A DNA stretch of 64,000 nucleotides, from IMG/VR virus record IMGVR_UViG_3300046170_000302; one strand, given 5' to 3'. The stretch's first letter is position 1. Every line of letters starts with the position of its first letter. The position numbers and the translations under genes are program-made. The notes under the pieces are model-generated. The model saw nothing but the letters and a program-made list of their open reading frames with translations. It did not search any database and was not told where the DNA came from. Positions 2 to 24,800 of this stretch are shown piece by piece. This DNA comes from a virus. Taxonomy: Duplodnaviria > Caudoviricetes.

Positions 2-247
2 ACAGAAACTTCAAACTTTACCAGTTATTCGACAGACGGATTTACATATACACAACAAGAAAAACTTGTTGAAATTGCAGAGAGATTGTCATCACAAAAT
101 GTGAGAGTGATTATATCAAATCATGATACAGATGTTAGTCGTGAGTTGTATAAGAATGCCAAGATTCATACAATTGAAGTGAGAAGAAATATATCTGCAA
201 AAGGAACGTCAAGAAACAAAGTTAAGGAACTGATTGCGGTCTATTAA
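2..247 (+). CDS. dam: DNA adenine methyltransferase (Dam family), C-terminal part; gene begins before the window
   Basis: Frame 2 reads TETSNFTSYSTDGFTYTQQEKLVEIAERLSSQNVRVIISNHDTDVSRELYKNAKIHTIEVRRNISAKGTSRNKVKELIAVY*, matching the C-terminus of E. coli-type Dam (NFT.Y...F...Q..L, ISNHDT, VRR.IS, KV.EL.A.Y). Confidence 0.85.
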   Translation, partial: TETSNFTSYSTDGFTYTQQEKLVEIAERLSSQNVRVIISNHDTDVSRELYKNAKIHTIEVRRNISAKGTSRNKVKELIAVY

Positions 248-296
248 TATTACTCACCTCTAAATTGCTCCACTACTGTAAGACACTTCAACCACT

Positions 297-1190
297 ATGG
301 CAAACACACATCTCCCACATCCAGAAGATACCATCCTCACGGGTGATCTGAGAGCATTCAGAGATCTTTATGGACCCGGACATGTGTCCCTTAAGATTGA
401 CGGTGCTCCCCTCTATTGTGTGGGGTAAACATCCAGAAACTGGTCGGTTCTTTGTGTGTACCTAAAGCGGCATTCAACAAGAAAAAGAATCGTATCTGTT
501 ACAACAACGAGGATGTTCATACTCACTTCGGTCATCAGCAAGATGTAGCAGACATGCTATTCTTGATGTTGAAGTATATTCCCCGTGACATCTTCACTGG
601 TGTTTATCAGGGTGACTTCATGGGTTTCGGTCGTACCGATGCTTTCATGAACAACACTCTAACTTATGTGTTTCCTGAAGTTATTCAACAAAAACTTGTC
701 ATCGCACCTCACACAATCTATGATGTAGTTGGTAAGTTGTCTGACGCAGTTGCTGAACCTCTTCGTGAGGTATTTGCTGACACTCCACACATCAAGTGGG
801 TTCAACCTTCTGTCGATTTCATTCATCAGAATGTCAAACCTCCTGTGTTCGATCTCAGTAAGGTTCAGTTTATGTCTGACAAAGAGTCATTCGTAGCTCA
901 ACAACAGGTCAACGCTCTTATCAAGTCAGGTCAAACACCCTGAAGATTGTGATCTTAACTGGATTCTAGGTGACAACTTCCTCACCAATCTGTATCAGTT
1001 GTTGATTGACATCAAAGAAGATCTCATGAAGTCTATGATTGTTCATGACTCTCCTAAGTGTTATCTTCCTGATGGTACTGAGGTTGTGGGTGAGGGTTTC
1101 GTATTCTATTCTGAGTCTGGTCGTTCCTACAAACTCGTTGATCGTCCTGTGTTCGCATATACTAACTTCACCACTGGTAAGTTCAACTAA
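297..1190 (+). CDS. Conserved cyanophage early protein (~297 aa) with ligase/nucleotidyltransferase-like motifs; three apparent 1-nt indels
   Basis: Reconstructed by joining MANTHLPHPEDTILTGDL...LKIDGAP (297-), ORF 416-943 and ORF 999-1190 (..EGFVF..YKLVDRPVFAYTNF). Shifts near 409, 463 and 940. Confidence 0.7.
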
Positions 1191-1252
1191 CTAGAAGGGG
1201 TGATAATATTACTCACCCCCTAAATTGCTCCATCTATGTAAGGTTACACACC

Positions 1253-1462
1253 ATGGATCCAATCACAATTTCAAGATCACACTATGACACTATTGTTGAG
1301 AGTGTAGAGGAAGTTCTCAAAGTTCTCAACAAAGTGAACTATGATTGTGATTCTTTAGATCCCAAAAACGTTTGTTACACAGCACCATATGCTGTTGGAT
1401 ATTCACAAGGTGTAGTATCCCAAATTCTCTCTAACCTCAAAACAATCAAGGAGAACAACTAA
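1253..1462 (+). CDS. Hypothetical early protein
   Basis: ORF starts 11 nt after motif copy 2. Confidence 0.7.
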   Translation: MDPITISRSHYDTIVESVEEVLKVLNKVNYDCDSLDPKNVCYTAPYAVGYSQGVVSQILSNLKTIKENN

Positions 1463-1638
1463 TGAATTCCACCATGGAAAATGTGATCGATGTGATGGGT
1501 GAAACCTATTTCAGTAGGTTCATGGACTTTGTAGATAATGAGGATTTAGAAACATCAAAGGCACTCATGGATGAGTGGATTGTTGATGGTCAAGATCCTC
1601 AAGATGGTGGAGTCGAGTTCATCTGGTTAGAAGAATGA
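1462..1638 (+). CDS. Hypothetical acidic protein (58 aa)
   Basis: MNSTMENVIDVMGETYFSRFMDFVDNEDLETSKALMDEWIVDGQDPQDGGVEFIWLEE*; start overlaps the upstream stop (TAATG), with GGAG upstream. Confidence 0.65.
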   Translation: MNSTMENVIDVMGETYFSRFMDFVDNEDLETSKALMDEWIVDGQDPQDGGVEFIWLEE

Positions 1639-2174
1639 TGAGGTTACTTCAAAAGATCACATCAAGTGCTATTGGTCTATCACTCCTTACAATTCCAGGT
1701 GTGAGTGCAAAGATGAACTCAAGTCATGATGAACTAAAAAGAGCTCTGAATGATGTAGGTGTTGAAGTTTTCTTGAATGAAACAAAGTTATGTAATGGTA
1801 GTAAATCTGGTATGTATTCTCCTGACTATGATGCAATTCTCATATGTCAGGATGATAGAATTGAAACATCAGATCAAGAGGTTGAATGGACAGAAAATGA
1901 TTATGATACTTTGAGACATGAATCACAACATGTTGTTCAGGATTGTATGGAAGGAATTGATAATAATAAGATGTCACTATTTTTTAGTGACGAAATAGAA
2001 TATCTGGAGTTTGTGATCATGGGTTTGACAAAATCAGAATTCTTTCAGATTGTCGAGGCATATCGACCACTTGGTGATGATGTTCTCTTGAATGAATTGG
2101 AGGCATTTGCTGTAGCTAAAGGTGTAAAACCTGACACTATTGCTAAAGCTATTCGTGGTATATGTAGGAATTAA
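1635..2174 (+). CDS. Putative exported zinc metallopeptidase (zincin HExxH)
   Basis: N-terminal signal-like segment (MRLLQKITSSAIGLSLLTIPGVSA), TLRHESQHVVQDC motif and a downstream ELEAF glutamate. Confidence 0.6.
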   Translation: MMRLLQKITSSAIGLSLLTIPGVSAKMNSSHDELKRALNDVGVEVFLNETKLCNGSKSGMYSPDYDAILICQDDRIETSDQEVEWTENDYDTLRHESQHVVQDCMEGIDNNKMSLFFSDEIEYLEFVIMGLTKSEFFQIVEAYRPLGDDVLLNELEAFAVAKGVKPDTIAKAIRGICRN

Positions 2175-2228
2175 AGTTACTCACCACTAAATTGCTCCAG
2201 TAGTGTAACCACACACCAAACACACATC

Positions 2229-2712
2229 ATGGGAACTAGAGGCAGAATCGGAATCAAACTCATCGATGGTTCTATTCTTTCGGCATATCACCACTGGGAT
2301 TCATATCCTCAGTGGTTGGGTGTTAAACTCGTCAAGAACTTTAATTCACAAGAACTAGCATCTGATCTGATTGATGGAGGTGACATGTCCGCATGTTATT
2401 CTACTCACACTTGGGGTTCAGAACCTCTCAGACAGGAAGTGATTCAACCTGACGGATCTGTCACCAAAGAGTTGGTTCATGAACAAAGATGGTGAGACTG
2501 TTTACACTAAAGTCAAGGCAGAAGCATCACCTCAGTATTACTCAGAACGGGGTGAGAACACTCCTCCACGTTTAGATAAGGATCTCTTTGAGTTCCTCGA
2601 TAAAGGTGAAGAATACGCATATATCTGGGAAGAAGGTTTCTGGACTTGTTATGATCTTCATCAGTTTGATGATCAAGAACCTGAAATCGTAGAAATCCCT
2701 CAAGTTCTCTGA
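2229..2712 (+). CDS. Conserved phage hypothetical protein (Y.HWD.YP..LG..L family); one indel near 2478
   Basis: ORFs 2229-2495 and 2479-2712 join on removing one base; follows motif copy 3. Confidence 0.7.
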
Positions 2713-2766
2713 TAGATTGTTACTCACCTCTAAATTGCCCCACTTACATAACCACACATTCAAACT

Positions 2767-2949
2767 ATGATTAACTACCTCGTCAAATGTCCATCCGATC
2801 CTTATGAGAATACCGATTGTTTCGGTGATCTTGATAGGGCATGGGATCTCTGTTACAACCTCTCTGAAGAGTATGGATACGCAGAGGTTGGATATTACAA
2901 TGTCAAAGGACATTATCAACTCGTAGGTGACTACACTAACGGTCGTTAA
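2767..2949 (+). CDS. Hypothetical early protein
   Basis: ATG 15 nt after motif copy 4. Confidence 0.7.
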   Translation: MINYLVKCPSDPYENTDCFGDLDRAWDLCYNLSEEYGYAEVGYYNVKGHYQLVGDYTNGR

Positions 2950-2950
2950 T

Positions 2951-3151
2951 ATGAACTACACTAAAGAACAACTTGTGGATGCACTTGTTCATGAGTGGGA
3001 ATATCTCTGTCATGACGATTATGATCCACAAGATCCAACACCAGAACAATATCGCAAAGAGATGGAAGAACTCACAATTGAACAATTGATTGAAGAGACT
3101 GACACAGGTGAGGGATTTACATTAGAAGATTTCATGGATGTTCACAGTTAA
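2951..3151 (+). CDS. Hypothetical acidic protein
   Basis: MNYTKEQLVDALVHEWEYLCHDD...; ATG directly after the previous stop; its stop abuts motif copy 5. Confidence 0.7.
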   Translation: MNYTKEQLVDALVHEWEYLCHDDYDPQDPTPEQYRKEMEELTIEQLIEETDTGEGFTLEDFMDVHS

Positions 3152-3203
3152 TAAAGTTACTCACCTCTAAACTGCCCCACTATTGTAATCACTCATTCAA
3201 CTT

Positions 3204-3556
3204 ATGACCTTCACAGCACCTCAATACAAAACCGAATATCTCACCGAATGTCTCATCGAACAGGTTAATGATCGTTGGAAGGTTAACTCAATCGAGTCCG
3301 GTCGTTCTTTCTATTCTCGTCTGTCTTATAAGGTAGCTAAGAAATACATCAAAGTTCTTCAAGGTCGTGTTAACTCCGATGGTTCATATGAGACTGAGGG
3401 TGTATTCATGTTCATCGACAAAGAGACTGAAGCATGTTACAAACCCGCATCATATAAGGCACCTGCTAAGGGTATCCGGTTCTTTCTTGAGTCTCTAGTT
3501 GATAGGATAGTCCCGATCTGGTAGATCCTTATGGTAGTTTTCTTTACGTTCGTTGA
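3204..3556 (+). CDS. Conserved phage hypothetical protein (KKYIKV..FIDK....YKPAS..APAKG.RF..DPYGSFLY); indel near 3515
   Basis: ORF 3204-3524 continues in another frame as DLVDPYGSFLYVR* to 3556; follows motif copy 5. Confidence 0.65.
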
Positions 3557-3620
3557 ACTTATGGGGTGAGATTGTTACTCACCTCTAAAGTGCATCATCT
3601 ATGTAATTCTGTTTTATCTC

Positions 3621-3818
3621 ATGACATTTCTCAACTGGGTTCAAGAAGCAATTGGATGTAAAGTAGAGGACGAAAGAACCGGTATGATTCATACTATTAC
3701 CGGTGGTAAGTTCCTCGCTGATTCACCTCTTTGGCCCATGATTGAACTCACCGATGATACTGGTGTTGTCAGATTCGCAACTCTTGATAGATTTGAGGAA
3801 ATGATTTCAGTGGGATAA
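3621..3818 (+). CDS. Hypothetical early protein
   Basis: ATG 14 nt after motif copy 6. Confidence 0.7.
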   Translation: MTFLNWVQEAIGCKVEDERTGMIHTITGGKFLADSPLWPMIELTDDTGVVRFATLDRFEEMISVG

Positions 3819-3984
3819 CATTCCCCACTTTTTCCATAATTTCGTCTGAGATGACCTATGACACCCTCACCCCAATGAAACCACCTAGAAATCGATTTAT
3901 GACACCTTACAGAGGATGTATGATTAATATTGTTACTCACCTCTAAAACGCTCCATTACTGTAAATCACTTTTCTTTTCTAATC

Positions 3985-4125
3985 ATGTTTGAATACGAAG
4001 TTACTCTCTCCAAAGGTGGTCGTCACATTCACATCACCGTCTTCGCAGAATCCACACAACGAGCTTACAAACAGGCTGAACGGTTGTATCCTGGAACACG
4101 TGCACTTAACGCTAGTCAGGTTTGA
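3985..4125 (+). CDS. Hypothetical protein (46 aa)
   Basis: MFEYEVTLSKGGRHIHITVFAESTQRAYKQAERLYPGTRALNASQV*, 20 nt after motif copy 7. Confidence 0.65.
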   Translation: MFEYEVTLSKGGRHIHITVFAESTQRAYKQAERLYPGTRALNASQV

Positions 4126-4403
4126 TGAACCATCACATTTATCACCTTCGTGAGGCTGAATTACCAGCCTCACTTTTTTATCAGTTAGCACCATTCATCT
4201 CTGCATATCGTCCACATGATAAGCCTCCGACCAAGAAAGATATGGATCAAGATGATTACATACCAAAGGAATCGCCTTTATCTAAAGAGAACATCATTGA
4301 CACATATAAAGCGCTTAAGTATTCACAAGACCTTGAATGGTTAAAGTTAAAGAGAGAGTATAATAAGAAGTGGAGTGGATATCGAACATATTACAATCTA
4401 TGA
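4122..4403 (+). CDS. Hypothetical protein
   Basis: ORF overlaps the upstream stop; ends just before motif copy 8. Confidence 0.55.
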   Translation: MMNHHIYHLREAELPASLFYQLAPFISAYRPHDKPPTKKDMDQDDYIPKESPLSKENIIDTYKALKYSQDLEWLKLKREYNKKWSGYRTYYNL

Positions 4404-4459
4404 GTATTAAAGTTACTCACCACTAAATTGCCCCATTGATGTAACCACTGATTTCAACC

Positions 4460-4722
4460 ATGACTAACACAACTTTCCAAACCACAATCGAAGACACCAC
4501 GTATAATGGATGGACAAATTATGAGACCTGGAATGTAGCACTCTGGATTGGTAATGATCGAAGATTTATATACCGAAGCACGTCGTCTTCGTCATCGTGG
4601 ATATAATGATCTAGTTGAACTTATCCTTGATTGTGGATCTAAAGAAACACCCGATGGAGTAAAGTGGGAATGATGTTAATCTTAATGTTATTGAACTTGA
4701 TGAAATGATGGAGGAACTTTGA
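4460..4722 (+). CDS. Conserved phage protein of the YNGWTNYETWNVALWI.ND family; two apparent indels
   Basis: MTNTTFQTTIEDTTYNGWTNYETWNVALWIGND/EDLYTEARRL...ETPDGVKW/NDVNLNVIELDEMMEEL*; ATG 15 nt after motif copy 8. Confidence 0.7.
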
Positions 4723-4724
4723 TC

Positions 4725-4896
4725 ATGTCACTAATCAAAACACACCTTGAAATGTTATCACAAAGAGAAACACTAATGGAGGACATTGAACTCTATTATC
4801 GAATCAAACTTTGGAGATAAAATTAATGAAGATGATATGGAAGATTTAATTCGCGTCCTATGTGATGCAGTCTGTAAGAACTTCCCCACTAACTAA
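4725..4896 (+). CDS. Hypothetical protein (~56 aa); one indel
   Basis: MSLIKTHLEMLSQRETLMEDIE/SIIESNFGDKINEDDMEDLIRVLCDAVCKNFPTN* after removing one base near 4790. Confidence 0.5.
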
Positions 4897-4906
4897 CACA
4901 AACTCA

Positions 4907-5084
4907 TGACTGACTTTCCAATCTACAAGAAACAACTCCCACAAATCTGGATGGAGGATGATAAGTTTATTATTCGAATCATCATCATTCCGATATGTAA
5001 TAGAAGACGACTTAAAACTATTGTTTAAGTTATGTCGTCGTTTTAAATCTCAAGCAATTAAACAAACATACAATCATGAGTAAC
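4907..5084 (+). CDS. Hypothetical protein (~58 aa); one indel
   Basis: MTDFPIYKKQLPQIWMEDDKFII/ESSSFRYVIEDDLKLLFKLCRRFKSQAIKQTYNHE* after removing one base near 4975. Confidence 0.5.
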
Positions 5085-5270
5085 ATTCACATCAATCAAC
5101 ACTATGTTAAGTTCAATACAAAAGAACTAAAAAGGTTAATTGAAATCATTACAATTAATAAGGAAGAAGATATGTTAGTAGTAAAGGATAGGATAGAACA
5201 AGTATTAGGTATGAAGGAAGATCCAATCGATAAGTTTCATAAAACAATAAGGTATTATGACAAGAAGTGA
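5076..5270 (+). CDS. Hypothetical protein
   Basis: ORF overlapping neighbours at both ends. Confidence 0.6.
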   Translation: MSNIHINQHYVKFNTKELKRLIEIITINKEEDMLVVKDRIEQVLGMKEDPIDKFHKTIRYYDKK

Positions 5271-5394
5271 TTACATTACAGTAGAGACTTGGAATACTAA
5301 GTTACAGAAGGTAGAGTATCATTATGTCCATAAAAGTATCAAGAATCCGAAACAATATGTCCTAAGTTTATACCCAGAAGAACGTCTATTGTAG
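5257..5394 (+). CDS. Hypothetical protein (45 aa)
   Basis: MTRSDYITVETWNTKLQKVEYHYVHKSIKNPKQYVLSLYPEERLL*; overlaps the upstream ORF, preceded by AAGG. Confidence 0.55.
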   Translation: MTRSDYITVETWNTKLQKVEYHYVHKSIKNPKQYVLSLYPEERLL

Positions 5395-5760
5395 TCACTT
5401 AGTAACCCCAGATATACCGAGTAGTGTCTATACAGTAACCACGGAGTAACTGTCACTATTCGGTAACAATTTATACCAAATATCATTAAAAAACATTAAT
5501 AAAGGTTTATTTAAATGTATTAGTGCGTTTTTACTAGTTCAAATAAGGTCTTAGAAAAGTGTTATAAATACCCGATTTTATGGTCTCAGTTATTGTTATC
5601 TAAGGCCGTAACCTACCGATTGTCAAGCACACAACGCCCAGAAATCTCACTGGCACAAAATATTACACAGAACCCCTATTTTCGAATATAATAAAGATAT
5701 AAACACAGAAAACATTTGAGAGTTATTGTTACTCACCTCTGAAGTGCCCCTATAGTGTAA

Positions 5761-5875
5761 GGGGTTGATTCCTTCCCTCTCATTGTTTCTCCCTTCGGGA
5801 CTTCTCTGAGAGTGTTGACTATCTCCCCAGAGGCATGACACACAAGTCAGTAAGGACACCTCTCCCAAATCCTTA
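5761..5875 (+). ncRNA. Candidate small structured RNA between motif copies 9 and 10
   Basis: The only motif copy with no ATG 11-20 nt downstream. Relatively GC-rich, with stems CTCTCA/TGAGAG, GAGAGTGT/ACACCTCTC, TGACT/AGTCA and TCCC-TTC-GGGA. Confidence 0.35.
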
Positions 5876-5931
5876 AGAGTTATTGTTACTCACCACCAAA
5901 CTGCACCATTGATATGAACAACACTTCAACC

Positions 5932-6087
5932 ATGACCTTCTCACAAGTCCTCGATCAAGTCCCTACATTCTACGAAGAGATGGAGGGAGACCTTGAAATG
6001 GTAATCGACTTCGTTGAGAGTCAGTTAGGTAGAGATGTAACAGATACAGAGATCGACCAAATTGACACTGTTATGGAGACAGTTTGA
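5932..6087 (+). CDS. Hypothetical acidic protein (51 aa)
   Basis: MTFSQVLDQVPTFYEEMEGDLEMVIDFVESQLGRDVTDTEIDQIDTVMETV*, 14 nt after motif copy 10. Confidence 0.65.
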   Translation: MTFSQVLDQVPTFYEEMEGDLEMVIDFVESQLGRDVTDTEIDQIDTVMETV

Positions 6088-6947: not shown

Positions 6948-7020
6948 GCTTCCTTAGCAATCTGGTGAATGCAGCAAACTCATAATTTGCCTAAGGTGAG
7001 TTCGATCCTCACAGGAAGCA
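6948..7020 (+). tRNA. tRNA with CAT anticodon (probably tRNA-Ile2; automated tools would call it Met); CCA not encoded
   Basis: Cloverleaf: acceptor GCTTCCT/AGGAAGC plus discriminator A; D-arm GCA..TGC with TGG; anticodon arm GCAAA-CTCATAA-TTTGC; T-arm GTGAG-TTCGATC-CTCAC. Confidence 0.93.
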
Positions 7021-7021
7021 C

Positions 7022-7051
7022 TTGACAGAAACCCCCCACAGAGGTTATAAT
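7022..7051 (+). promoter_or_regulatory. Host sigma70-type promoter for the dam gene
   Basis: Consensus TTGACA (7022-7027), 18-nt spacer, TATAAT (7046-7051), 35 nt before the ATG at 7086. Confidence 0.8.
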
Positions 7052-7085: not shown

Positions 7086-8003
7086 ATGCCTGCTATTAAA
7101 GAGAGGAAGAAGTATCCAAATTGTCTGAGGTATCCTGGAGGTAAGTCAAGGATTATCCATTATCTCTTCAGACAGAATATGATACCTTCACAGATCAAGG
7201 AGTATCGGGAAGGGTTCTTAGGTGGTGGTAGTTGTGCACTTGCATTCTCTACGATGTATCCAGGGACTCCTGTATGGGTGAATGATCTTTATTATAATCT
7301 GTATTGTTTCTGGACACAGTTACAGAATAACTCAGATAGTCTCACAAATCGTATATTAGAATTAAAAGATAAAGCTTGTGTTGCTACTGATGTTACTGAG
7401 TTAGAACAGAAACACAGAGATCTCTATGGAGAGATGAGAGAGTTAATCAATACTTCTACAGATCCACATGATCTTGCAACCGCCTTTTATGTTCTGAACC
7501 GGTCGTCCTTTGGGGGATTTACAGAACAGAATAAGAATGCGTTTATTCGTGACTCTTATAAGAATACAATCTTCAATCAGGTTAAGATTAAAAAATTACC
7601 GGAGATTTCATCTCTTATACAACCATGGAGGATTACGAATGGGGACTATCGGGATTTGATGACGGCTCCTGGTGAGGATGTCTTTGTATTCTTGGACCCA
7701 CCATATCTGATTAAGGATATGTTATATGGTAAGAACAAGGAGATGCATACGGGTTTTATACATGAAGACTTTGTTAAGGCTTGTAAGGATACCCCACATA
7801 ACTGGATGATCACCTATAATGAACATCCATGGTTACGTGAACAGTTTGCTGATTATCATATGGAAACATTTGAGTTTCGGTATTCACTTGCACATCGTAA
7901 AGAGAATGGCAACAAGAAAGAAGAGTTATTGGTAATGAACTATCAACTTCCGCGTCAGTTGGAAGAAAATAACATTCTTTCAGAACTACTAGATAACGTG
8001 TAA
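7086..8003 (+). CDS. dam: DNA adenine methyltransferase (D12 class, T4 Dam-like)
   Basis: LRYPGGKSR, EGFLGGGS (motif I), WVNDL, LNRSSFGG and catalytic DPPY. Confidence 0.9.
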   Translation: MPAIKERKKYPNCLRYPGGKSRIIHYLFRQNMIPSQIKEYREGFLGGGSCALAFSTMYPGTPVWVNDLYYNLYCFWTQLQNNSDSLTNRILELKDKACVATDVTELEQKHRDLYGEMRELINTSTDPHDLATAFYVLNRSSFGGFTEQNKNAFIRDSYKNTIFNQVKIKKLPEISSLIQPWRITNGDYRDLMTAPGEDVFVFLDPPYLIKDMLYGKNKEMHTGFIHEDFVKACKDTPHNWMITYNEHPWLREQFADYHMETFEFRYSLAHRKENGNKKEELLVMNYQLPRQLEENNILSELLDNV

Positions 8004-12814: not shown

Positions 12815-15800
12815 ATGGCAGTAGATAGAGTTCAGTTCCAGGATATTGTTGAGAGTCAATTTCCTAGATATGTTTTGGAAGACTTCCCTCTTCTTCCAGA
12901 ATTCATAAAGCAATATTATAAGTCACAGGAGTATCAAGGTGGTACTCTTGATTTAGTTCAAAACATTGACAAGTATGTTAAGGTTGATGAATTATTTACC
13001 CTTAAGACTTCTACTCAACTAAATGGTGAACTGGATTATACTGCCACAACAATCCCTACATCATCTCTTACAAACTTTACTGAAGGATTTCCTGAGACTA
13101 ATGGTCTTATCAAGATTGATCAGGAAATCATTCACTACGAATCGATTAGCAATAATTCCTTTATCAACTGTACCAGAGGGTTCAGTGGTATCACAACATA
13201 TATCTCTGGCAATCAACCAGATCAACTAACGTTCAACCAAACAGAAGCTGCAGAACATACAGATAATTCAGTTATCCAAAATCTGAATGTTATTTTCCTT
13301 CAGGAGTTTTTTAGTAAGTTAAAGAATCAGATCGCACCTGGTTTCAATGACAGACAACTCTTTTCTGACTTGGATCAGAGAAATTTTTTATACAATATAG
13401 ACAGTTTCTATAAATCAAAAGGAACAGATCAATCATTCAAGATTCTCTTCAGAGCTTTATATGGTGAAGAAGTAGAGATCATCAAACCAAGTGAGTCTCT
13501 GTTCAGACCTTCCAATGCAGACTACAAAGTAGAGAAAGACTTTGTTGTAGAACAAGTTGCAGGTGATCCATTAGAACTTAAAAATCTCACTCTCTTCCAG
13601 GACTCTACAAACTCTAGAGGTTCCATATCTGATGTTAAACCAATCAATTATGGTGACAAACAATATTATCAGATAAGTATTGACTCTGGATATGCTAGAG
13701 ATATCAGTGTTACTGGTTCTATCTTTGGTGAGTTTAAAGTTAATCCTAAAACAAAACTTCTGAATAATGTAAGTGTTGGCGCAACTATCCTTGATGTTGA
13801 TTCAACTATTGGTTTTCCAGATACTGGCAACTTGATCATCAAAGACAATGTAGGTGACATAGTTTCTATATCATATGCTGGAAAAAGCATTAACCAATTT
13901 TTCAATGTTAGTGGTGTTTTTGATACTTTCTCATCAAAAGAGGATATTCGTTTAGATGATTATTCATATGCGTATGTTGGATTTGATACTAGTAATCAAA
14001 TTCAGGTTCGTATTACTTCTACTCTTAAAGAATTCAAACTAAATCAAGATTCATACTTCTACAATGAAGGTGATACTATCAACGTCCAAACTCTTGGTAT
14101 TGAGAGAGGAGATGAAAGATCCCAGAACTGGTATTCTAATGTCAAAACAGAATGGAATATTGAGAATATTGAACTAGTTGATGAACTGGAAAAATCATAT
14201 TCAATCACTCTATTTGATTCTCATTTCTTGAGACCAGGATATCAGATCACACTGACAAGCAATAGTGGACTACAACTTCCAGGTATTGTAATTAGATCTT
14301 CTTCTAAGAACTCAGTGTTGACAAAGCTTGCTGCAAATGTTGGTAGCATTTCATATATTAAACTAGAGAATCAACTCCTCAAAGGAAACTCTGGTAAATA
14401 CTCTACTCTGAACAACTTTGTTGCTAATATTCAGAATGTATACCAGAAATTTAATGGTGATGTAGTAGTTGCATCGAACTCACTTCCCAACTATTCAAAC
14501 ATTTTCACTGATCCTTATGATAAGAAGATAACATTCTCTGGTTCTTCTTCTGATCTTGAAACTCTTGTTCTGAGTACAAATCAAGATCATGGGTTCTTGA
14601 CTGGTGATGCCATCTTCTACAAACCAGGTATTATAAAGACCACAACAATTGCTCCTGATGGTATTACAGTAGTAACTGAAGACGAAAGTAAGTTTGAGAA
14701 TATTGATACTAATGTTTATTATGTAAAGAGAGTTAACTCAACAAGTATCAAACTTGCAAGATCTAGAGCAGATATTTTCTCTGAAAAGTTTGTAACTCTG
14801 GTTGGTACTGTATCGGATAATGAGTTTATCTACTATGATTTCTACAATAAGATACTTTCTCCACAGAATATTGTAAGAGAAATTCTCGCACCTAATAACA
14901 AATCTGGTAACTATCTAACTGAACCTGGTTATAGTGGTATTTTGATTAATGGTGTTGAGATTCTTAACTACAAATCTGGTGAAAGTTTGAAGTATGGTGA
15001 TCTTAGATCTCTCGAAATCACTAATCCTGGTGAAGACTACGATATCATCAATCCTCCTGTATTGAATATCGTTGATGACTACGGTAGTGGTGCAGAAGGG
15101 ACTGCATCAATAGAAGGAGAGTTAGTAGGTATAAACCTAATCGACCGCGGTTTTGACTATCTAGATGTTCCTACTGTAACTATCACTGGTGGCAACCCTA
15201 CAGAAGAGGCTGTCGCTGAAGTGAATATGACGAGTATCGTTCACTCACTTAATTTCAACTCAGAGCTTTCTGCAAGAAAGATTGATCTTGGAAATAATAC
15301 TATTGGATTCTCAACATTCCATAAACTCAATGTTGCAGATAAGGTATTCTATGATGCTAAAGATGGTAATCCAATCGCTGGTCTCTCCACCAATGCTTTC
15401 TACTATGTTGAACTAGTAGATACTTCTACTATCAAACTTCATACTTCAGAGGATAATGCAAGAGTTGGAATCAATACTGTTGATATTACTAACTTCGGAA
15501 CAGGTTTTCAAGCTATCACATCAGTTGATAGTAAAAGTATTGTAGCAGATATCTATATTATAAATTCTGGCAAAGGTTATAAAAATAATCAAAGAAAGAT
15601 CCCAGTAATTGGAATCAATACAGCGAGCAATAGTTTCAACATTCCCAACCACGGTTACAACTCTGGTGAGACTATTAAGTACTCTACCACAACTACTGGT
15701 ATTGTTGGACTTTCTACCGTAGAGAATTACTATGTTAATAAGTTAGATGATAATAACTTCTCACTATCTTTAGTAGGAACTGGTGTAACTGATAAAAAAT

Positions 15801-18800
15801 ATTTTTATGATAGAAATATATTGGTTGATATCTCTACGATTGGGAATGGTAGTTTTAACTATCTTCCTATTGAAGTTAAACTTAATGGAATTGTTGGTGT
15901 CAATACAGTTGCAGGTCAGGACTTTCAGTGCAAAGTTCAACCTCTCTTTAGGGGATCAATTCAATCTGTTGATCTTACAGACAATGGTGTGGCCTATGGA
16001 TCATCAGAGATTATCAACTTTAATAGACAACCAAATATCTCATTCAATAGTGGTAAAGATGCACAACTAACACCTATTGTAAGCAATTCTAAGAATTGTT
16101 GATATCATTGTAAACAAAGGTGGTAGTGGTTACAACTCTCCACCAAATCTTATTGTTACAGGTGAGGGTAGATTTGCAAAACTTACACCAATCATTGAGG
16201 GTGGTGTAATCACTTCTGTCAAGATTATGAGTAGTGGTATTGGTTATGTTAGTGGATCGACCAATATTCAAGTAGAACCTGCAGGTAAGTATGGTGAAAC
16301 ACAAGCTGTAATTAGAAACTGGAATATTAATCTATTTGAAAGAGATTTTGATAATATTGGTGTTGATGATGGTTTTGTGAGTGAGAGTATTGATGACAAC
16401 TCACTTGAGTATTGTCATCTCTATGCACCAAGACCTCTTAGATCTAACACTTATGTTATCTCTGGTAGTGACGAAACACAGTATGGTATCTCTGACCTTA
16501 CATTAGCTGGTGGTATAGAGAAAACAAGTTCTTATCACTCACCTATTCTTGGTTGGGCATATGATGGTAACCCCATCTATGGTCCTTATGGATTTACTGA
16601 TCCACAGGGTGGTAATATTTCTCAGATGATTTCTGGGTATGAACTAAGAACTAATCCTACCAATAGACCACCAACATCATTGTTCCCTCTTGGATATTTT
16701 ATTGAGGATTATATTTTCACAGATAGAGGTGATCTTGATATCCATAATGGTCGTTTCTGTGTAACTCCTGATTATCCAACTGGTAGATATTGTTATTTCT
16801 CAACTCTGAATACTTTCAGTGTTGATTCCACTGGTCCTTTTAAAAACTATAGAAGACCTGTATTCCCATACTTGATTGGTGACACATTCTACTCTAAACC
16901 AAATGTCACTAACTTTGGTGTGTTGAGTAATCAAAATGATTACAATCTGGAGAATGGTGAGTGGTTTAGAAACACGATTGCATATCATACTAATGATGAC
17001 AATAGTGGTTATGATTATGTGTTCAATTCTGATAAAGAAAGAAATCAATCATTAGATATTGTAAGTGCATCTAAAGGATCTGTTGAGAGTATTGGTATTA
17101 TCACTGGTGGTAACTTCTATAAAGTCAATGATAGAATTTTAATTAATAATGAAGGAACTAGTGGAACTGATGCGCAAGGTCGTGTAGAGAGAGTATCTGG
17201 TGCTGATGTAAATTACATCAACTTTGAGACTACAGGTTTAGATAATATTGAGTTTGGAAACATTTCCAATTTGAATCAATTTATTGGATTCTCTACTCAG
17301 TCTATTCCGTTCAACACTGGCGAAATTGTAACTATCTCTGGTCTATCTACAACCTTCAGTGGTTACTCTGGAGTTACAAATACCAGACTTGGTATCAGAA
17401 CAGATAACTTTGTATTAACTCTTGGAGTGGGTTCTACGGGTGTTACGGGTCTTACCACATACTTCTATGTGTCTGGTGATCTCAACTATCCAACTATTCG
17501 TGAGAACGACATTCTTGGTATTGGAACAGAAAACATAAGAGTTCTGAATATCGATAACAAAGCAAAGAGAATTCGTGTTAGAAGAGAATATGATGGTATC
17601 TCCTGTGGTTTGGCACATACTAATAGTTCTGTTCTGTTCGAAGATCCTCGTAAGTTCCGTGTAAATGTTGATACTCTGAAAACAACCAATGCTCTTGAGA
17701 TCAATAAGGAATATTATTTCTATCCACAAGAAGTTGTAGGTGTTGGTACTGTTGGTGCTGGTTCTACAATAACCTTCTCTAATCCTGGAGTAGGGTGTCA
17801 CCCAGATGTTTGTTCCTACTAAACAGATCTATCTTCCAGATCATGGTTTGAGTGTAAATGATAGACTTTACTACAATAGGCAAGGTGGAACTGCTATTGG
17901 TGTTTGGAATGGAATCACTACTACCTTCAAGAACTTAGACACATATGATTTCTATTATACAGCTCCTGTAAGTAGAGACTTTATTGGTCTTTCTACCAAT
18001 AAGATTGGTATGGGAACTGAGGCACAATTTGTTGGAGTTGGAACAACTTCTGGGCTTCTTTACTTTACATCTGTTCCTACTGATGACTATCCATAGTTTC
18101 CTTACAGATAAAGATAATGTACTAACTGGTAGAATATCCAGAACAACAGTTAATGTCGCAACTTCTGGAACACACGGTCTTTCAGTTAATGACACTGTAT
18201 ACGTTCTCTGTCAAACCAACTGACACTAAGACAGTAAATGTTACTTATGATGATTTTTCTAGAAGAATCTTATTTGATCCAAAGAGTATTACTGCGACCA
18301 ATACTATCAAAAACACTGTGGCTGTCACAAATCATAATTTTGTTAAAGGTGATAAAGTTCTTTATAGAGAAGGTTCTTCATCTATCGGTGGTTTGAATGA
18401 CGGTCAATTGTATTACATCTATCCATATGATAACAACTCTATTCAATTTGTTAGTGAGAGATTCCAACTATCAAAAGATAGACCACCAGTAATTGATATC
18501 ACATCAACCGGTAATGGTACTCTTTTCAAGATTAATCCACCACTATATGTAAAGAGAAACAATAAACTTAAATTTGATCTTTCTGATCCATCACTTTCCT
18601 TTGTTGTTAGTGGTGTTCGTTATTCTGCTTTTGAATTAAGACTTTATAGTGATAGTGAGTATAGCAATGTGTATGACACGTCTGGAACTAAAACTACCTT
18701 CGAAGTTACAACTTCTGGAAGACCTGGTATCGATGCAGATGCAAATCTAACTCTATTGGTATCTGATGAAGTTCCAACAAACTTGTGGTATAAATTTGTT

Positions 18801-21800
18801 CCCATTAACAATGATATCATTACTAATGTCAAGAAAGAAATCTTTATTGATACTGATGTAAATTCTCATCAAGAAATCAGTGTAGAGAAAACTAGGTATA
18901 ACGGTGTTTACAATATTAGTGGTATTGGATCGACCACCTTCAGTTACAATGTTTCTTTAGAACCTGATGTTTCAACGTACAATGTTGAGAATTCAGTGAC
19001 CACATATGAGACCACATCATCTACGGCTCTTGGTCCAATTAGTCGTATCTCGATGTTAGATAATGGTAGTAACTATGATATTATTCCTGGTATCAATACA
19101 GGTAACCACAACACATGGTAGTGGTTGTATTCTTAAACCACAGAGCACTTCTATTGGTAAGATTAAAAGAGTAACTTTCAATTCACAGAACATTGGATTT
19201 GATTATCCAACTGATGAAACTCTAAGACCTATTGCTAACCCACCTGAAATTCTTGAATTAGAATCTCTAACATCATTTGAGTCTATTGGTATTAGTTCTG
19301 GTGGTAGAAATTATCTGAGAGCACCAAGCTTGGTTGTTCTTGATGGATTTACAAGAGAAGTTGTTGGAGATTTAGCTCTTACTTACAGTCTTGGAGATAA
19401 TCAAGTTACTATTCTCCAAAACTCTACAGGAATGTATAATGTATCACCAGAAATAATTCCTGTTGACAATACAAATGGTATTGGTATCGCGTCTCTGACA
19501 TACACCCCATCAACTAGGACTGTCAGACTTTATCTGAACAGTACATTTAGTGATGCTAGTGCATTCCCATATGATGTTGGTAGTAAGATCTTTGTTGAAA
19601 ATTTGAATGTCGGTGTCAATTCTACAGCTAAAGGATATAACTCTGAAAACTATAGTTACCAGTTCTTCACTGTAACTGCTTCAGACTCCAATCTTGGTGG
19701 TGGTCCTGGAGCATATGTTGATTATAGTCTTAAAGAATATCTGAGTGATAGTGATGTTCCCTGGTAATGTGGATTTACCAAATTCATCTGGTAGAGTTAT
19801 TCCTGTCGATCATTTCCCAATCTTCAGTTCTACACTCACAACAAATGATTTCTTTGAAAATGAAGTAATCATGTATAGAGGGAGAAAAACTGGTAGGGTT
19901 GAATCCTGGAATCCAGTTACTGAAATTCCTTAAGGTTGATACTCCTAAAGAGTATGAAGTTGGTCAAATTGTAAAAGGTTTGTCTTCTGACACTCAAGCT
20001 GTTATTAAAACAAAAGTTGATTTTGATGCTGAAATCACTACAGGGTGCTGGTGCAACTATAACTTATGGTTGGCAGAAGAACACAGGTTTCTTGAATGAT
20101 TCCTTACAAAGAATACCCAACAATGAGTATTATCAAACATTCTCATATTCTATCAAATCTAGAGTTCCTTATGACACCTGGGAAGATCCAGTATCTGCAC
20201 TCAATCATATCTCTGGATATAAAGAGTTCTCCGATCTTCAAGTCATTAGTATTGAAGATCAACCGTTGGCTATTGCACAACCTTTTGATTCTGATGTTGA
20301 CACTACTACCGATATTGTTGGTAGAGCGAGTCTCCACTGTTTCTATGATTTTGATTATGTAACTGAGAGTAACAATATTATAAATGGTGTTCTGTCCTCT
20401 GATGAAATTTTCTTTGAGAATAGAATTCTCTCAGATTACTTCCAATCTGTTGGTAACAGAGTTCTTGATATTGATGACTTTAGTGGTGAGTTCTTCAGTA
20501 ATGAAAGACCTACTAAGTATAGTGATATTGATGCATTTGAGTTCAATGACATCTATAACAAAATATTCACATTTGTAAGAGATAGAATCTTTACAGATGA
20601 GAGACAGTTCTCTATTGTTTCACTGATTCAAAGTGAAAGTATTGGATATATGCAACAATATGCAACAATAGAAACATATCCAGAACTTGGATACTTTGAT
20701 TACTTCTCAACTGCTGATGGTTGGAATCTTCAGTTCCACCCTGTAAAGTTTGCGAACAACACATATGACACATCTACTATTTCTATCAGTATCAAGGACA
20801 ATATAACCTCTATTGGTAGTAGTAATATTGGTAGTGTTGCTCTTGTAGATACTAATAGAGAAACAACACCTAATAATACATTAGAAACTATTGTATCTGT
20901 ATCATCTACTTTCAGATCCGTTAAAGCTCTTGTACTTCAAGAAGACGAGAACGGCGAATATGCATCTAATGAGTTTAACCTGATCCACGATGGAACTGAT
21001 GTTCATATGGTGGAATATGGTGAGATGCAAACCAAACCTGGTTCATACTCATCTACTGGATTTGGCACTTTTGGATCCAAATTGTCTGGTGGTAATATTA
21101 TTCTCGAATATACACCAAATGTCGGAACAGCAGTTACAACAAATACTTCTATTGTAGCTATATCTGACTCTGCAACTGGTATCTCTTCACTAACATTCCA
21201 AGAATCCAGATTGAACTCTGGATTTAAGAATATTGCATCTTCTGGATCACCATCAGCTAATACAATCCTTCAGTTTGAGGAGCCATACTCGACTGGTTAT
21301 TATGTTGTATCTGTTAAAGATACAACTAACTCTCAGTATGAGATGTTTGAAGTTTGTGTTATCGCTTCTGAATCGAATCACGGTTTTGTAGAGTTTGCAA
21401 ACATCCGTACTGGTAATAGTATTGGTCAGATCGGATTCACAACAACTGGTAAGTATAGAAACTTAACTTATACACCCAATGCAAGTACAGCTGTTCAAGT
21501 CAGAACATTTGGTATTGAACAAAAAATCTATGACGCTGATATAAGTGCTCCAACCAATTTAGATCTGAACAATGTTGATATTAAATCAGATACAGGATTG
21601 TATAGGGGTACTAAGCTTGATCTAAGAACTGCATTTGATCTAAAACACGATGGTCTTCCAATCTTCCAGAGACAATTTGCTGGCAATAACTCGACCACAT
21701 TTGATTTTGATCAGAATACACTGTTCCTCAAAGAACACTTCTTTGTCACTGGTGAAAATGTTACCTACTCTTATGCTGGCAATGAAACAGAACAGGCTAT

Positions 21801-24800
21801 TGGAATTGCTGCAACTAGTGTAGCTGGTATTGGTGTTACTAACAAACTTCCTAGAGATTTGTTTGTTGTTAAGATTGGAGATGGTAGTGTCAGATTTGCA
21901 GAAAGTGCAGAGAAGGCACTAAGATTGAATCCAGAGGTATTCCAGTTTACCTCAGTTGGTATCGGAACCTCTCATAACATCACAGCTAAGAAACAGAACT
22001 CCAAGGCTCTGATAGCTGTTGATAATATGATTCAGGCTCCTCTATCTGAAACAAAAATCGTAACATCTCTCAATGATAATATTGTATTTGATTCTATATT
22101 CCCAACCACTGGTATAACGTCTATTGCTGCAGCTGATCTGATCAAGATTGGCAATGAAGTGATGCGTGTTGTCTCTGTTGGTGTTGCTGGAGCCGGAAAT
22201 CTGACTGTTCAGAGAGGACAACTTGGAACAAACTTACAACCTCATGGTGTTGGATCTACTATCACTAAAATGAGTGGTACTTATAATATTGTTGGAAGTA
22301 CTCTGAACTTCGTCTCTCCACCATATGGAGCTATCCCACTCTCCACTACATCAGGTTCACCTTCTGAGAGAGACTATACTGGTTTGACTACACATTCTAC
22401 TTTCCAAGGTAGAACCTTTATGAGAACCTGCTCCTGTCAATACTGACAAAGAGACATATTTCGCTAACCACTGTATTTGATGATGTATCAAATAATTTCA
22501 CTGGTCTTAGAAGTGAGTTTAGACTTACTAGTGAAGGTCAGAATACCACAGGTTTCTCAACAGATAACGCTATTATTCTAATCAACAATATCTTCCAGGA
22601 ACCACAAGGTGCTCAGGCAAATCAAGGAACCTATGATCTTTCTGAAACTGCTTCTGGCATTTCTTCAATCAGATTTGAAGAGAGTGGAGCAGCTTTTGGT
22701 TATGATCCTAATAGAAGTAATCTTCCTATTGGTGGTTTTATTGTTTCTATTGGATCCACAGAAGGTGGTGGATATCAACCTTTGATTGGAGCTGGTGGTA
22801 CAGTTACTGTATCTACAGCTGGAACAATTACCTCTGTAAGTATTGGTAACTCTGGATCTGGTTATAGATCAGGACTGGGAACAGTATTTGTTGGTGTTCA
22901 AACTTCTAGTATCGGAACTCCCAATATTCAAATTATTGGTAAAGCTACTGTATCTGGTGGTAATGTTACTAGTGTAACAATTACTAACCCTGGATCTGGT
23001 TATACCTCAACAAACTTACCTGAACTTGTAATTGATGATCCTGCTTCATATACAAACATCCCTCTGGTCTACAGTGGAAGTTCTGTACAAGGTGTTCGGT
23101 CAATCCGCGACTATCGATATTCAAGTTGGAGCTGGTGGTAGTGTTGTTGATTATCAACTGAAACAGGAAGGTTTCGCTTATGGTAATGGTGAGATTCTAA
23201 CTGTTCCTGTTGGTGGAGCAACTGGTATTCCTACAAGTGGAACACTTAAGTGAGTTCCAGATTACTGTTGATGAAATCTATCAAGATGATTTTAATGGTT
23301 TCTCTATTGGACAACTTCAGGTTCTCGATAACTTTGATTCACAGTTTGATGGTTTAAGTAGAAGTTTTAGATTATCAGTTAATGATGTTGCACTTTCAAT
23401 TCAATCAGCACCTGGATCACCTATTGAAGTTGACAAAACACTATTGATCTTTCATTAATGATGTTCTTCAACAACCAGAAGTTGCATATAACTTTACTGG
23501 TGGTGGTACAGTTCAGTTCGTTGAACCACCAGAACCTGGTGATAGTTCAAAGTACTATTCTACAAGGGTAGTGGAGATGTTGATGTTGTATTCACTGATA
23601 TTCTGGAAACAGTTAAAACTGGTGATACATTAGATATCAACAATAATCCAGAACAGGGACAGGGAACTGGATTGGATGAAGATGTGAGAACTGTTGTTGG
23701 TATTAATACTATTGATAGTGTTCAAACCACTACCTATAGTGGTCCTGGTGTTACTAATGATACAACTCTCAGTAGACCTCTGACATGGTGTAAGCAACAG
23801 ATTGATAAGATCATTAATGGACAGGAAATAGGTAAGGATAGAGTTGAATACGAACCTCTGATTTATCCAACTTCTTATCTAATTCAACCAATCAGTTTGG
23901 CTTCAACAATTGCTTATGTTGATAGCGTAAGACCTCTCTTCAATACTTATACTGAGTCAGGTGATAGAGATTTCCAGAACAATATCAAGATTTTATCTCA
24001 GGATACTTCAGTTCAGCAGTTGCTACAGCTAGTGTTTCTGGACTTGGAACTGTCTCTATTAATATAACCAACGTTGGTTCTGGATACACTGTGGCTCCAA
24101 CACTGAGTATCGCTAATCCTTCTGACGGAACAAGGGCAACAGGAACACTCACATTATCAGGTGGTAGTGTTGGTGTTGTAACTATTACCAATCCTGGAAC
24201 TGGTTATACAAATACCAATCCACCTTTGGTCCTTGTTTCTGAACCAATTCTTACAAGAGAAGAAATTGAAGTTGATAGTTACACAGGTGATTATGGAAAT
24301 ATCGTTGGTTTGGGAACTACTTCCACTGGTTCTCAACATCAACTTTACTTCGATCTCTATATTCCGGTTCAATCATTCATGAGAGACGCTGAGTATGTTG
24401 GATCAAGTGTCACTATTAGTTCTATCTCAACTAATGATTACTTAACTATCTTTAATACGAATGTTTCTATCGCTGATACATTTGCTTCACAGGATGGATC
24501 AGGATCTACCATTGGTATTGGAACTACTTCTGTTGATAATGTTTACAAGGTCATCTCTTCACAAAGAAGAGATCAGAATGTCGGTGGTATCGGTGTTACG
24601 GCTATTCAAAGAATTACCGTGAATGTTGATAAACCTGGAACATTCGGTTTTGAATCCCAATCTGAGATGGGCAATTACAGTTGGGGTAAGATTCAATTCG
24701 GTGGTAGATCTAAACCACTTACTTTTAACTTCTACGGAAATAATGGAGTTAGTGGAATTTCTACTGGTGGATTGGTGTCCAGATTTGAACCTCTGAAATT

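Follow-up and report, generated by a model that had tools for sequence, protein, structure and literature searches.

Does a repeat that recurs before one small phage gene after another start transcription, mark the places where genes are exchanged, or do both? The question is raised by an array of direct repeats near one end of the window, the 64,000-nucleotide stretch of DNA from a marine T4-like cyanophage analysed here, which a preliminary description had read as a possible promoter-plus-recombination module.

Ten repeats and the units they head

The 9-mer TTACTCACC, referred to here as the box, occurs exactly ten times in the 64-kb window, on the plus strand only and within 250-5894 (starts at 250, 1209, 2177, 2720, 3157, 3575, 3933, 4413, 5729 and 5886), in agreement with the earlier count of ten same-strand copies. 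Shuffled windows hold 0.69 copies on average, and 0 of 100 shuffles reach ten. A 23-nt core pattern with three or fewer mismatches recovers nine copies against 0.01 expected, missing copy 2 because of an extra C alone. When both window strands are scored with a weight matrix derived from 266 related copies, nine copies reach 45-59 bits and no other site falls between 3 and 45 bits. The extra C (position 1221), described as the one exception to a fixed spacing, appears in no metatranscriptome contig spanning that position. The window contains about ten single-base insertions, this error among them, and the spacing is therefore fixed in all copies. The degenerate pattern proposed for the repeat holds exactly in six copies (1, 2, 3, 4, 5 and 8), but copies 6, 7, 9 and 10 deviate at one or two positions. 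The proposed length of 32 bp proves too short, as conservation spans about 40 bp: counted from the first T of the box, it begins near -8 and ends near +34. The array is laid out as follows.

243..5917, plus strand: whole array, ten same-strand repeats forming nine gene cassettes and one ORF-less unit
Array neighbours: upstream, the 3' end of a DNA methylase gene (2-247); downstream, small ORFs, a tRNA-Met and a second methylase
250..281, plus strand: repeat copy 1, heading the DUF6267 gene cassette (297-1190), with the gene interrupted in the window by three single-base insertions (408, 461 and 938)
1209..1241, plus strand: repeat copy 2, with the spurious C, heading ORFs 1253-1462, 1462-1638 and 1635-2174
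2177..2208, plus strand: repeat copy 3, heading ORF 2229-2712, which is broken by an insertion at 2478
2720..2751, plus strand: repeat copy 4, heading ORFs 2767-2949 and 2951-3151
3157..3188, plus strand: repeat copy 5, heading ORF 3204-3524 (DUF7717 family)
3575..3606, plus strand: repeat copy 6, heading ORF 3621-3818; the exact site of an additional cassette in relatives
3933..3964, plus strand: repeat copy 7, heading ORFs 3985-4125 and 4122/4216-4403
4413..4444, plus strand: repeat copy 8, heading about five small ORFs (4460-5394), one of the DUF7249 family
5729..5760, plus strand: repeat copy 9, the sole window copy to retain the family TATAGT (CCCTATAGTGTAAG), heading a 125-nt ORF-less unit
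5886..5917, plus strand: repeat copy 10, heading ORF 5932-6087 and the small ORFs after it

The cassettes encode DUFs and PHROGs of unknown function. Syn9 has homologues of array genes in the cluster of small ORFs that follows its DNA methylase: gp69, gp71 and the helicase gp75. The short distances between a stop codon and the next repeat that were quoted for the window (247/250, 2174/2177, 2712/2720, 3151/3157 and 4403/4413) match the ORF list, and a leader of 11-20 nt followed by an ATG is indeed present after every copy except copy 9.

A private box and a shared core

Relatives divide the repeat into two halves. The 3' half, CTAAAGTGTnCC-TATAGT-GTAA, is common to many uncultured cyanophages and occurs with other boxes in 89 further IMG/VR stretches, while the box varies: at least 22 versions exist, each private to one lineage, and TTACTCACC is one of them. 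Among 292 copies, 267 bear the majority box of their own contig, with 22 majority boxes counted. Mixed arrays exist: L143 combines one CAGGGAGCC with five GGGGGGACG, and L097 five copies of one box with one of another. Contigs L103, with TTACTCACC, and L143, with GGGGGGACG, are 91.7-96% identical, and their homology begins directly after the box. TTACTCACC is invariant at 9/9 positions even between genomes in which orthologous array proteins share only 34-48% identity.

SynMITS9220M01 and S-B05, both isolates, and window copy 9 have 13 nt after the box (positions 0-8) and then TATAGT at positions 22-27. The 13-nt spacer is itself conserved (tCTAAAnTGynCC), and in the window lineage the 3' element has decayed to AyTAnT, then GTAA. 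None of 318 copies across 64 loci lies on the minority strand. An ATG follows 43-53 nt from the start of the box in 239/273 copies (88%). The intervening leaders are poor in G (C 1353, A 1296, T 709 and G 188 among related copies), and only 3/245 contain a Shine-Dalgarno-like sequence, bearing out the reported lack of that signal. The box keeps largely to a single small-ORF region in complete genomes of isolates, with 10/10 copies within 40.4-50.0 kb in SynMITS9220M01 and 12/15 within 31.7-40.4 kb in S-B05.

The window repeat shares the features of this family: a 3' half at fixed register, a box that is uniform within a genome and specific to a lineage, restriction to one strand, and an ATG about 45 nt downstream. 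By these features it is a member of a two-part cyanophage family that joins a private box to a shared CTAAAGTGTnCC-TATAGT core.

The two-half structure was not visible to the preliminary description, which was made from the window alone.

Exchange of units among relatives

The units between repeats behave as cassettes, as had been proposed. More than 60 related contigs were compared, and complete repeat-to-repeat units differ among them by having been inserted, deleted, replaced or placed in another order; cassette order is not identical among these relatives, nor are the repeats free of breakpoints. When each family of repeat-to-repeat segments is given a cluster number, the window reads 0 6 2 7 1 10 238 239 240, L050 reads 26 16 0 6 2 7 1 179 10 180 239, and L057 reads 5 8 0 4 11 198 239. 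L020 has cluster 12 inserted between 7 and 1, and L036 has cluster 22 inserted between 2 and 7. Contig L045 is 98.6% identical to the window upstream of copy 7 and diverges at that copy. The repeat zone holds 22/52 unique homology breakpoints, against 14.8% expected (p = 1.6e-6); many other breakpoints coincide with repeat-free gene boundaries (about 2950, 4125, 4727 and 5086).

Single junctions place the exchange within the repeat. Window copy 6 joins the upstream flank of one related copy (L002-5358) to the 3' half and downstream sequence of another (L002-5599), and copy 5, compared with L020, likewise draws its upstream flank and its 3' half and downstream sequence from different sources. 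The 3' halves of repeats segregate together with the cassette that follows, not with the one before, and the crossovers lie spread along the invariant 5' half instead of meeting at one point. About 25 bp (-8 to +18) are nearly identical in all copies and therefore offer a homology patch for recombination. At this patch the phage's own recombination system would exchange units, each moving unit comprising the 3' half of a repeat, the leader and the genes. On the evidence of these comparisons, the repeats are seams of gene-unit gain, loss and swapping. Selection for intact, expressed genes would alone favour recombinants joined at promoters.

Candidate function of the repeat

The repeat is probably a PeSL-like, phage-specific promoter and recombination seam of T4-like cyanophages, a function that, as regards the start of transcription, we infer from sequence. 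The promoter role suggested earlier agrees with the position, strand and geometry of the repeat but not with a sigma70 consensus; consistent with the reported absence of TTGACA, 0/10 window copies pass a sigma70-consensus scan. The invariant 9-bp box would occupy the place of a -35 element or activator site, and the second part would be a -10-like element, preserved in copy 9 and the two isolates and decayed in the window lineage. The predicted transcription start lies about 34 nt from the box's first T, which would give a C/A-rich transcript leader of 9-19 nt without a Shine-Dalgarno before one to five small genes. Gene type and synteny with the Syn9 small-ORF cluster suggest early or delayed-early timing for the array. 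Counting against a promoter, TAnnnT stands at +24 in only 32% of window-lineage copies, and T(G/A)TAA, the 3' element with the strongest conservation, lacks the two key -10 positions.

Promoter-early and promoter-middle stem-loops (PeSLs and PmSLs) occur in the T4-type phages RB49/phi1, T4/PST and KVP40/nt-1 (Arbiol et al., 2010, PMC2839356; Comeau et al., 2014, PMC4122927). PeSLs have been considered for a cyanophage once in the searchable literature, in S-PM2, and were judged unlikely there (PMC4503421). Like PeSLs and PmSLs, the window repeats are dense, same-strand repeats, here of a putative promoter unit, between small ORFan genes of a hyperplastic region. Relatives in both cases differ by insertion, deletion and replacement of units with crossovers inside the repeat, and both imply homologous recombination over short patches. 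Unlike a PeSL, the window repeat has neither a sigma70-consensus promoter nor a Shine-Dalgarno, its stem-loop is optional and lacks a U-tract, and it is built of two parts, a lineage-private box and a cross-lineage core.

T4 middle promoters combine a MotA box with a sigma70 -10, sigma being appropriated by MotA and AsiA, and their 9-bp activator box stands in place of the -35, 11-13 bp upstream of the -10. The geometry of the repeat agrees, with a 9-bp box in the -35 position, 13 nt and a TAnnnT-type -10, and the phage-specificity of the box suggests a phage-specific reader. The Mot box of T4 middle promoters has been described (PMC4122927); the box of the repeat differs from TGCTT and varies between close relatives, whereas the MotA box does not.

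The repeat was also compared with two further classes of phage promoter signal. The early-gene regulatory element that Doron and colleagues reportedly described in 2016 for Syn9 and P-TIM40 is, like the repeat, a non-sigma70 signal before small-ORF clusters of T4-like cyanophages, and the preliminary description had pointed to it. Syn9 contains only one exact TTACTCACC, however, and its one-mismatch count is no better than control. Upstream regions in Syn9 instead carry a different box, aaGTGTCCACC (GTGTCCACC), about 27 nt rather than 13 nt before TATAGT/TACTAT. Judged by box and spacing, the window repeat and the Syn9 element are different element classes. The promoters of T7, T3 and SP6 are, like the repeat, long and highly conserved, and the shared half presumably matches the SP6 promoter at 13/23 positions, CTATAG included. 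The variable box, in contrast, lies outside the footprint of single-subunit RNA polymerase promoters, and PF00940 (T7-type polymerase) was not found in five motif-carrying genomes, with control genomes silent too.

A more tentative proposal, one that may well prove wrong, is that the box is the docking site of a fast-evolving phage protein that redirects host RNA polymerase to the cassettes, a MotA-like takeover without homology to MotA or AsiA. Such a putative protein could enter along with the DNA or be synthesised straight after infection. Its box specificity could be re-set array-wide at once, because arrays that are 92-96% identical bear entirely different boxes. If the proposal is true, the box would also be a compatibility label for cassettes swapped between co-infecting phages. 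Searches of motif-carrying genomes returned no candidate for a box-reading protein and no phage sigma region 4, MotA or AsiA; PF09158 and PF09010 (MotA C-terminal domain, AsiA) gave no match above cut-off in five motif-carrying genomes, and control genomes were silent too.

An ordinary promoter of the host RNA polymerase, with no dedicated factor and with the box as the lineage version of a weak -35 region, is unlikely but would agree with the absence of sigma region 4, MotA and AsiA from those searches. Gene conversion would then keep copies alike within a genome, and box classes would reflect drift and homogenisation. Homogenisation is plausible since recombination within repeats is demonstrated, and the mixed arrays L143 and L097 fit it, but drift and conversion would fix different variants and TTACTCACC is invariant despite array proteins at 34-48% identity. 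In the isolates, GTTACT-N17-TATAGT matches a sigma70-like early promoter (-35, N17, -10) at 8/12 positions and lies near the T4/PST early consensus TTTACW-N17-TAYWAT (PMC4122927). The boxes GGGGGGTCG and CTTGGATCC, on the other hand, are nothing like a -35 element, and a "spacer" conserved across lineages beside a "-35" that is not is the reverse of a sigma70 promoter. The exact motif is, moreover, absent from Synechococcus and Prochlorococcus genomes; the 185,579 species genomes scanned yielded 14 single occurrences, in unrelated organisms.

It is improbable that the repeat acts in RNA, as a processing site, 3'-end or attenuator hairpin, or translation leader within a long early transcript. 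Repeats do start 3-10 nt past the preceding stop codon, and TCACCTC is similar to the 16S rRNA 3' end. The upstream complements noted for copies 2, 6 and 8 fold as described, and 52% of 259 copies pair at six or more positions with an upstream complement, versus 27% with shuffled upstream sequence. Such a core hairpin is not universal, however, being missing in about half of copies, and it lacks a U-tract; the only terminator-like site in the array lies away from any repeat. Assembled metatranscriptome contigs break at the repeats, as assemblies do at repeated sequence, and some RNA-library contigs bridge them; the latter count for an RNA-level signal but could be read-through transcripts or DNA carry-over. 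The gene before copy 1 belongs to another class, relatives have a fixed -10-like TATAGT, and ORF-less units start directly after the element, all of which speak against a role in RNA. Swapping of private boxes between 92%-identical arrays would be hard to explain for a site of a host RNase or the ribosome.

Integron attC sites are imperfect palindromes with GTTRRRY. The earlier comparison with an integron survives as an analogy, in that small mobile gene units are bounded by a repeated site, but no attC structure is present, and window units do not rely on a single Pc but each carry a promoter-like signal. A dedicated site-specific recombinase acting on the repeat, as on attC or in other cassette systems, is very improbable: cassette-wise indels and reordering at repeats would suit it, as would a private box, but the annotations of S-B05 and SynMITS9220M01 list no integrase or recombinase within or next to the arrays, GTTACTC does not fit the attC motif, many breakpoints lie at repeat-free gene boundaries, crossovers scatter over the invariant 5' half, and short homology suffices for T4-type recombination (Arbiol et al., PMC2839356).

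The repeat is one of three separate signal classes in the window. A perfect TTGACA-N18-TATAAT occurs once, at 7022-7051, and the late-type ATAAATA occurs at 17 sites, on the plus strand only, all but one in the structural module.

Genome and setting of the array

Marine Synechococcus and Prochlorococcus lose a large share of their cells to T4-like cyanophages, and little is understood of how these phages turn on their earliest genes. In the window, T4-type genes encode baseplate, sheath, portal, capsid and terminase proteins, every one of them on the + strand, and the portal gene DNA is ~77% identical to that of Synechococcus phages RB11-B, S-B05 and RN05-S and Prochlorococcus phage P-TIM68. 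Together, the structural genes and the portal match assign the window, by sequence, to the Kyanoviridae, as an uncultured T4-like cyanomyovirus of marine origin. The array of repeats is flanked as follows.

Features bordering the array, and late-type sites of the window
2-247: 3' end of a DNA methylase gene, bordering the array on one side
Beyond the array on the other side: a small-ORF block, tRNA-Met (6948-7021) and a second methylase
24826-59786 (17 sites), plus 5564, + strand: ATAAATA sites, almost all within the structural module

A perfect sigma70 consensus, TTGACA-N18-TATAAT at 7022-7051, lies directly after the tRNA-Met gene and before a DNA methyltransferase gene (7086-8003), and is the sole 12/12 sigma70 match within the first 7.1 kb. 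The T4-late-like ATAAATA occurs at 17 + strand sites and at none on the - strand, and many of these sites stand some 25-40 nt ahead of structural-gene starts. Since the window has both a sigma70 consensus site and late-type sites, the repeat is a regulatory class of its own, apart from either signal.

Several other features of the region are noted here. Cassette 8 and copy 9 are separated by 330 bp of AT-rich sequence (5395-5728) that has no ORF; it includes GTAAC five times and a single late-like TATAAATA, and may serve as an origin or in packaging. On the array + strand, just one strong terminator-like hairpin occurs (4150-4173; a 9-bp stem followed by TTTTTT); it sits just past ORF 3985-4125, at a gene boundary whose upstream gene is swapped in relatives. 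In the S-B05 record, a repeat_region is annotated at 40399-40500 (L064:2861-2962 in our set of array-bearing contigs), at the array head, where transcription diverges from the structural genes.

Anatomy of the repeat: private box and shared core

The 9-mer box TTACTCACC occurs exactly 10 times in the 64-kb window, on the + strand and at 250-5894 only; shuffled windows hold a mean of 0.69 copies and never ten, and a longer pattern gives 9 copies against 0.01 expected. A weight matrix built from relatives scores the window copies at 45-59 bits and finds nothing at 3-45 bits in 128 kb (both strands). The pattern is present in 62 IMG/VR stretches, each with up to ten copies, and the consensus of 266 unique copies is atTAatG-TTACTCACC-TCTAAA-n-TGCCCCA-ttan-TGTAA. 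All 318 copies (64 loci) keep to one strand per contig. Counted from the first T of the box, identity between unrelated cassettes is 66% at -5 to -1, 89-97% at 0 to +14 and 50-70% out to +34, reaching background past about +45. An ORF-opening ATG lies 43-53 nt past the box start in 239/273 copies, and the leaders are C/A-rich and G-poor, with a Shine-Dalgarno-like sequence in just 3/245.

The preliminary description had several copies starting within about 10 nt of the previous stop codon and leaders of 11-20 nt, and both measurements were borne out. Its degenerate pattern fits the window copies except 6, 7, 9 and 10, which are off at 1-2 positions. The extra C of copy 2, read there as the one exception to fixed spacing, is an error: every covering metatranscriptome contig is one base shorter at 1221. 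Set against all the contigs of public runs that cover these sites, the window carries one inserted base at 408, 461, 938, 1221, 2478, 4560, 4669, 4973/4975 and 6666, and it is because of such insertions that ORFs of the array region are split, among them DUF6267 (297-1190), 2229-2712 and 4460-4673, all intact in relatives. The giant baseplate-type gene that appears as four ORFs (12815-22446) may have the same cause.

The geometry of the element is clearest in two complete genomes, SynMITS9220M01 and S-B05, where the box is limited to the coding strand of one ~10-kb small-ORF region. There the element is TTACTCACC-tCTAAAgTGTcCC-TATAGT-GTAA, with a -10-like TATAGT 13 nt past the box; the resulting GTTACT-N17-TATAGT is near the T4/PST early consensus, TTTACW-N17-TAYWAT (PMC4122927). 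In the window lineage the hexamer has decayed: TAnnnT is found at +24 in only 32% of copies, T(G/A)TAA at +27 is kept, and copy 9 alone among the window copies retains TATAGT. No window copy passes a sigma70-consensus scan, and by eye none of the NtcA, sigma54, extended -10 or T4 late (TATAAATA) readings fits the motif. There are good grounds to infer that the repeat is a promoter and that its timing is early. In literature searches, neither the motif string nor early promoter motifs of cyanophages gave anything specific.

RNA data were available for the array region as assembled contigs only, from four metatranscriptome runs of four studies. Contig ends cluster at the repeats, as repeats lead one to expect; some runs leave bins 1-237 and 5452-5688 uncovered, and repeats are linked by short-sided joints. 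These contig ends, gaps and joints were rejected as evidence of a transcription start or of a joined form. Some repeat-headed units have no ORF, including that of copy 9 (window 5761-5885) and a conserved tcagacccctctaaaatc unit in four related contigs, L092, L103 (3149-3412), L143 and L093; a gap of 36-37 nt (5826/5827-5864) appears in contigs of two RNA studies. The ORF-less units may encode small RNAs, and the start of transcription could then be read from their 5' ends. For annotation, the motif marks true gene starts and ORF-less units in regions full of unannotated small genes.

The box and the rest of the repeat behave as separate parts. When the isolates' 3' half was searched alone, 89 further viral stretches emerged, with CTTGGATCC, TTAGTAACC, GGGGGGTCG, TTATGATCG, TTAGGATCG, ACTGnnnCC, CAGGGAGCC and other 9-mers at the box position. 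Among 56 contigs with >=3 copies, 267/292 copies bear their contig's majority box, 22 majority boxes are represented, and no copy lies on the opposite strand. The orthologous DUF6267 gene has the same upstream architecture throughout, each lineage with its own box. Contigs L103 (TTACTCACC) and L143 (GGGGGGACG) have cassette bodies 91.7-96% identical, with homology starting at +12, directly past the box, and the same units bear a third box in L093. TTACTCACC, on the other hand, stays the same in genomes that share only 34-48% identity in their orthologous array proteins.

Isolates with the family are few: a 51-nt unit, compared by BLAST with 50,697 phage records, matched only SynMITS9220M01 and one other record. 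Syn9 and P-TIM68 were negative as motif carriers, near-matches in the latter falling within psaC and psaA coding sequence. The exact motif was sought in 185,579 prokaryote species genomes and is all but absent there (14 singletons, all from unrelated organisms; no array, and no match in a marine picocyanobacterium), and an origin in a host regulon was rejected on these counts.

Cassette shuffling at the repeats

Contigs were split at the repeats and the segments clustered, each cluster number denoting one segment family. Change occurs by whole repeat-to-repeat units, which are gained, lost and reordered one by one across >60 environmental contigs.

Unit orders in the window and related contigs
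Window: 0 6 2 7 1 10 238 239 240
L050: 26 16 0 6 2 7 1 179 10 180 239
L002: unit 33 added between 1 and 10
L020, L060: unit 12 added between 7 and 1
L036, L022: unit 22 added between 2 and 7
L019: 78 0 15 2 79 1 21 80 81 238
L057: 5 8 0 4 11 198 239

A given unit is found in differing neighbourhoods, and the length of shared units is constant. Homology also breaks at the repeats. Over 507-3956, contig L045 matches the window at 98.6% identity, and it diverges at copy 7. Between 200 and 6000 there are 52 unique homology breakpoints, of which 22 lie in the -25 to +60 zone of a repeat, where 14.8% would be expected (p = 1.6e-6). Copy 6 joins the upstream flank of the L002 repeat at 5358 to the 3' half and downstream sequence of the L002 repeat at 5599, the two bounding a 241-bp unit in that contig; copy 5 has the same pattern relative to L020. 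These close-ups bear the signature of exchange between direct repeats. In all junction pairs the variable 3' half goes with the unit downstream of it rather than the one upstream, which puts the crossovers within the invariant segment from -8 to +18. The preliminary proposal that cassettes shuffle at the repeats is thus upheld by unit maps, breakpoints and junctions in relatives.

Breakpoints at about 2950, 4125, 4727 and 5086 are plain gene boundaries, off the repeats. In L057-type contigs, the two cassette 4 ORFs show a circular permutation (window 2767-3151: repeat, A, B; L057:7978-8419: B, repeat, A), the outcome expected if the unit had circularised and re-opened or had passed through a tandem intermediate.

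Relation to known systems and the proposed reader of the box

Among known systems the nearest is the PeSL/PmSL cassette (promoter-early or promoter-middle stem-loop) of T4-type coliphages and vibriophages, which resembles the array in location, ORFan association and indels bounded by repeats (PMC2839356, PMC4122927). The array differs in that its promoter-like signal is not sigma70-consensus, its stem-loop is optional (52% vs 27% in controls) and has no U-tract, a Shine-Dalgarno is missing, and the box is private to each lineage. Among the papers searched, PeSLs are discussed for a cyanophage only for S-PM2, where they were judged unlikely (PMC4503421). The array is clearly a cyanophage counterpart of the PeSL mechanism, and the comparative evidence for it far exceeds that from coliphage PeSL pairs.

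An early-gene element of Syn9 was reportedly described by Doron et al. 2016. Three genes of the window array have homologues within the Syn9 small-ORF cluster that follows the DNA methylase. The suggested kinship of the repeat with the Syn9 element does not hold: Syn9, itself without the motif, shows GTGTCCACC ~27 nt upstream of its -10, a different signal. The comparison to an integron fails on integrase, attC structure and promoterless cassettes.

The "spacer" is conserved, and the "-35" varies between lineages but is uniform within each; a host sigma70 promoter would predict the reverse, and the pattern suggests that a phage-specific protein is the reader of the box. T4 middle promoters have the same geometry as the repeat (box, 13 nt, -10), yet neither MotA (searched as its C-terminal domain) nor AsiA was detected in five motif-carrying genomes, nor were a T7-type RNA polymerase or sigma70 region 4, controls being silent in three of these searches. 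A gp55-like late sigma was the only such factor detected in those genomes. A 65-133 aa membrane protein, the top family in an array-linked screen for covariation with the box, was rejected as its signal follows phylogeny. The private box and shared core point to a specificity factor that could be found through complete, near-identical phage genomes with different boxes. Two mixed arrays offer natural tests of foreign-box function: L143 has one CAGGGAGCC unit (539) among five GGGGGGACG units, and L097 has one ACTGAAGCC among five TTAGTTACC.
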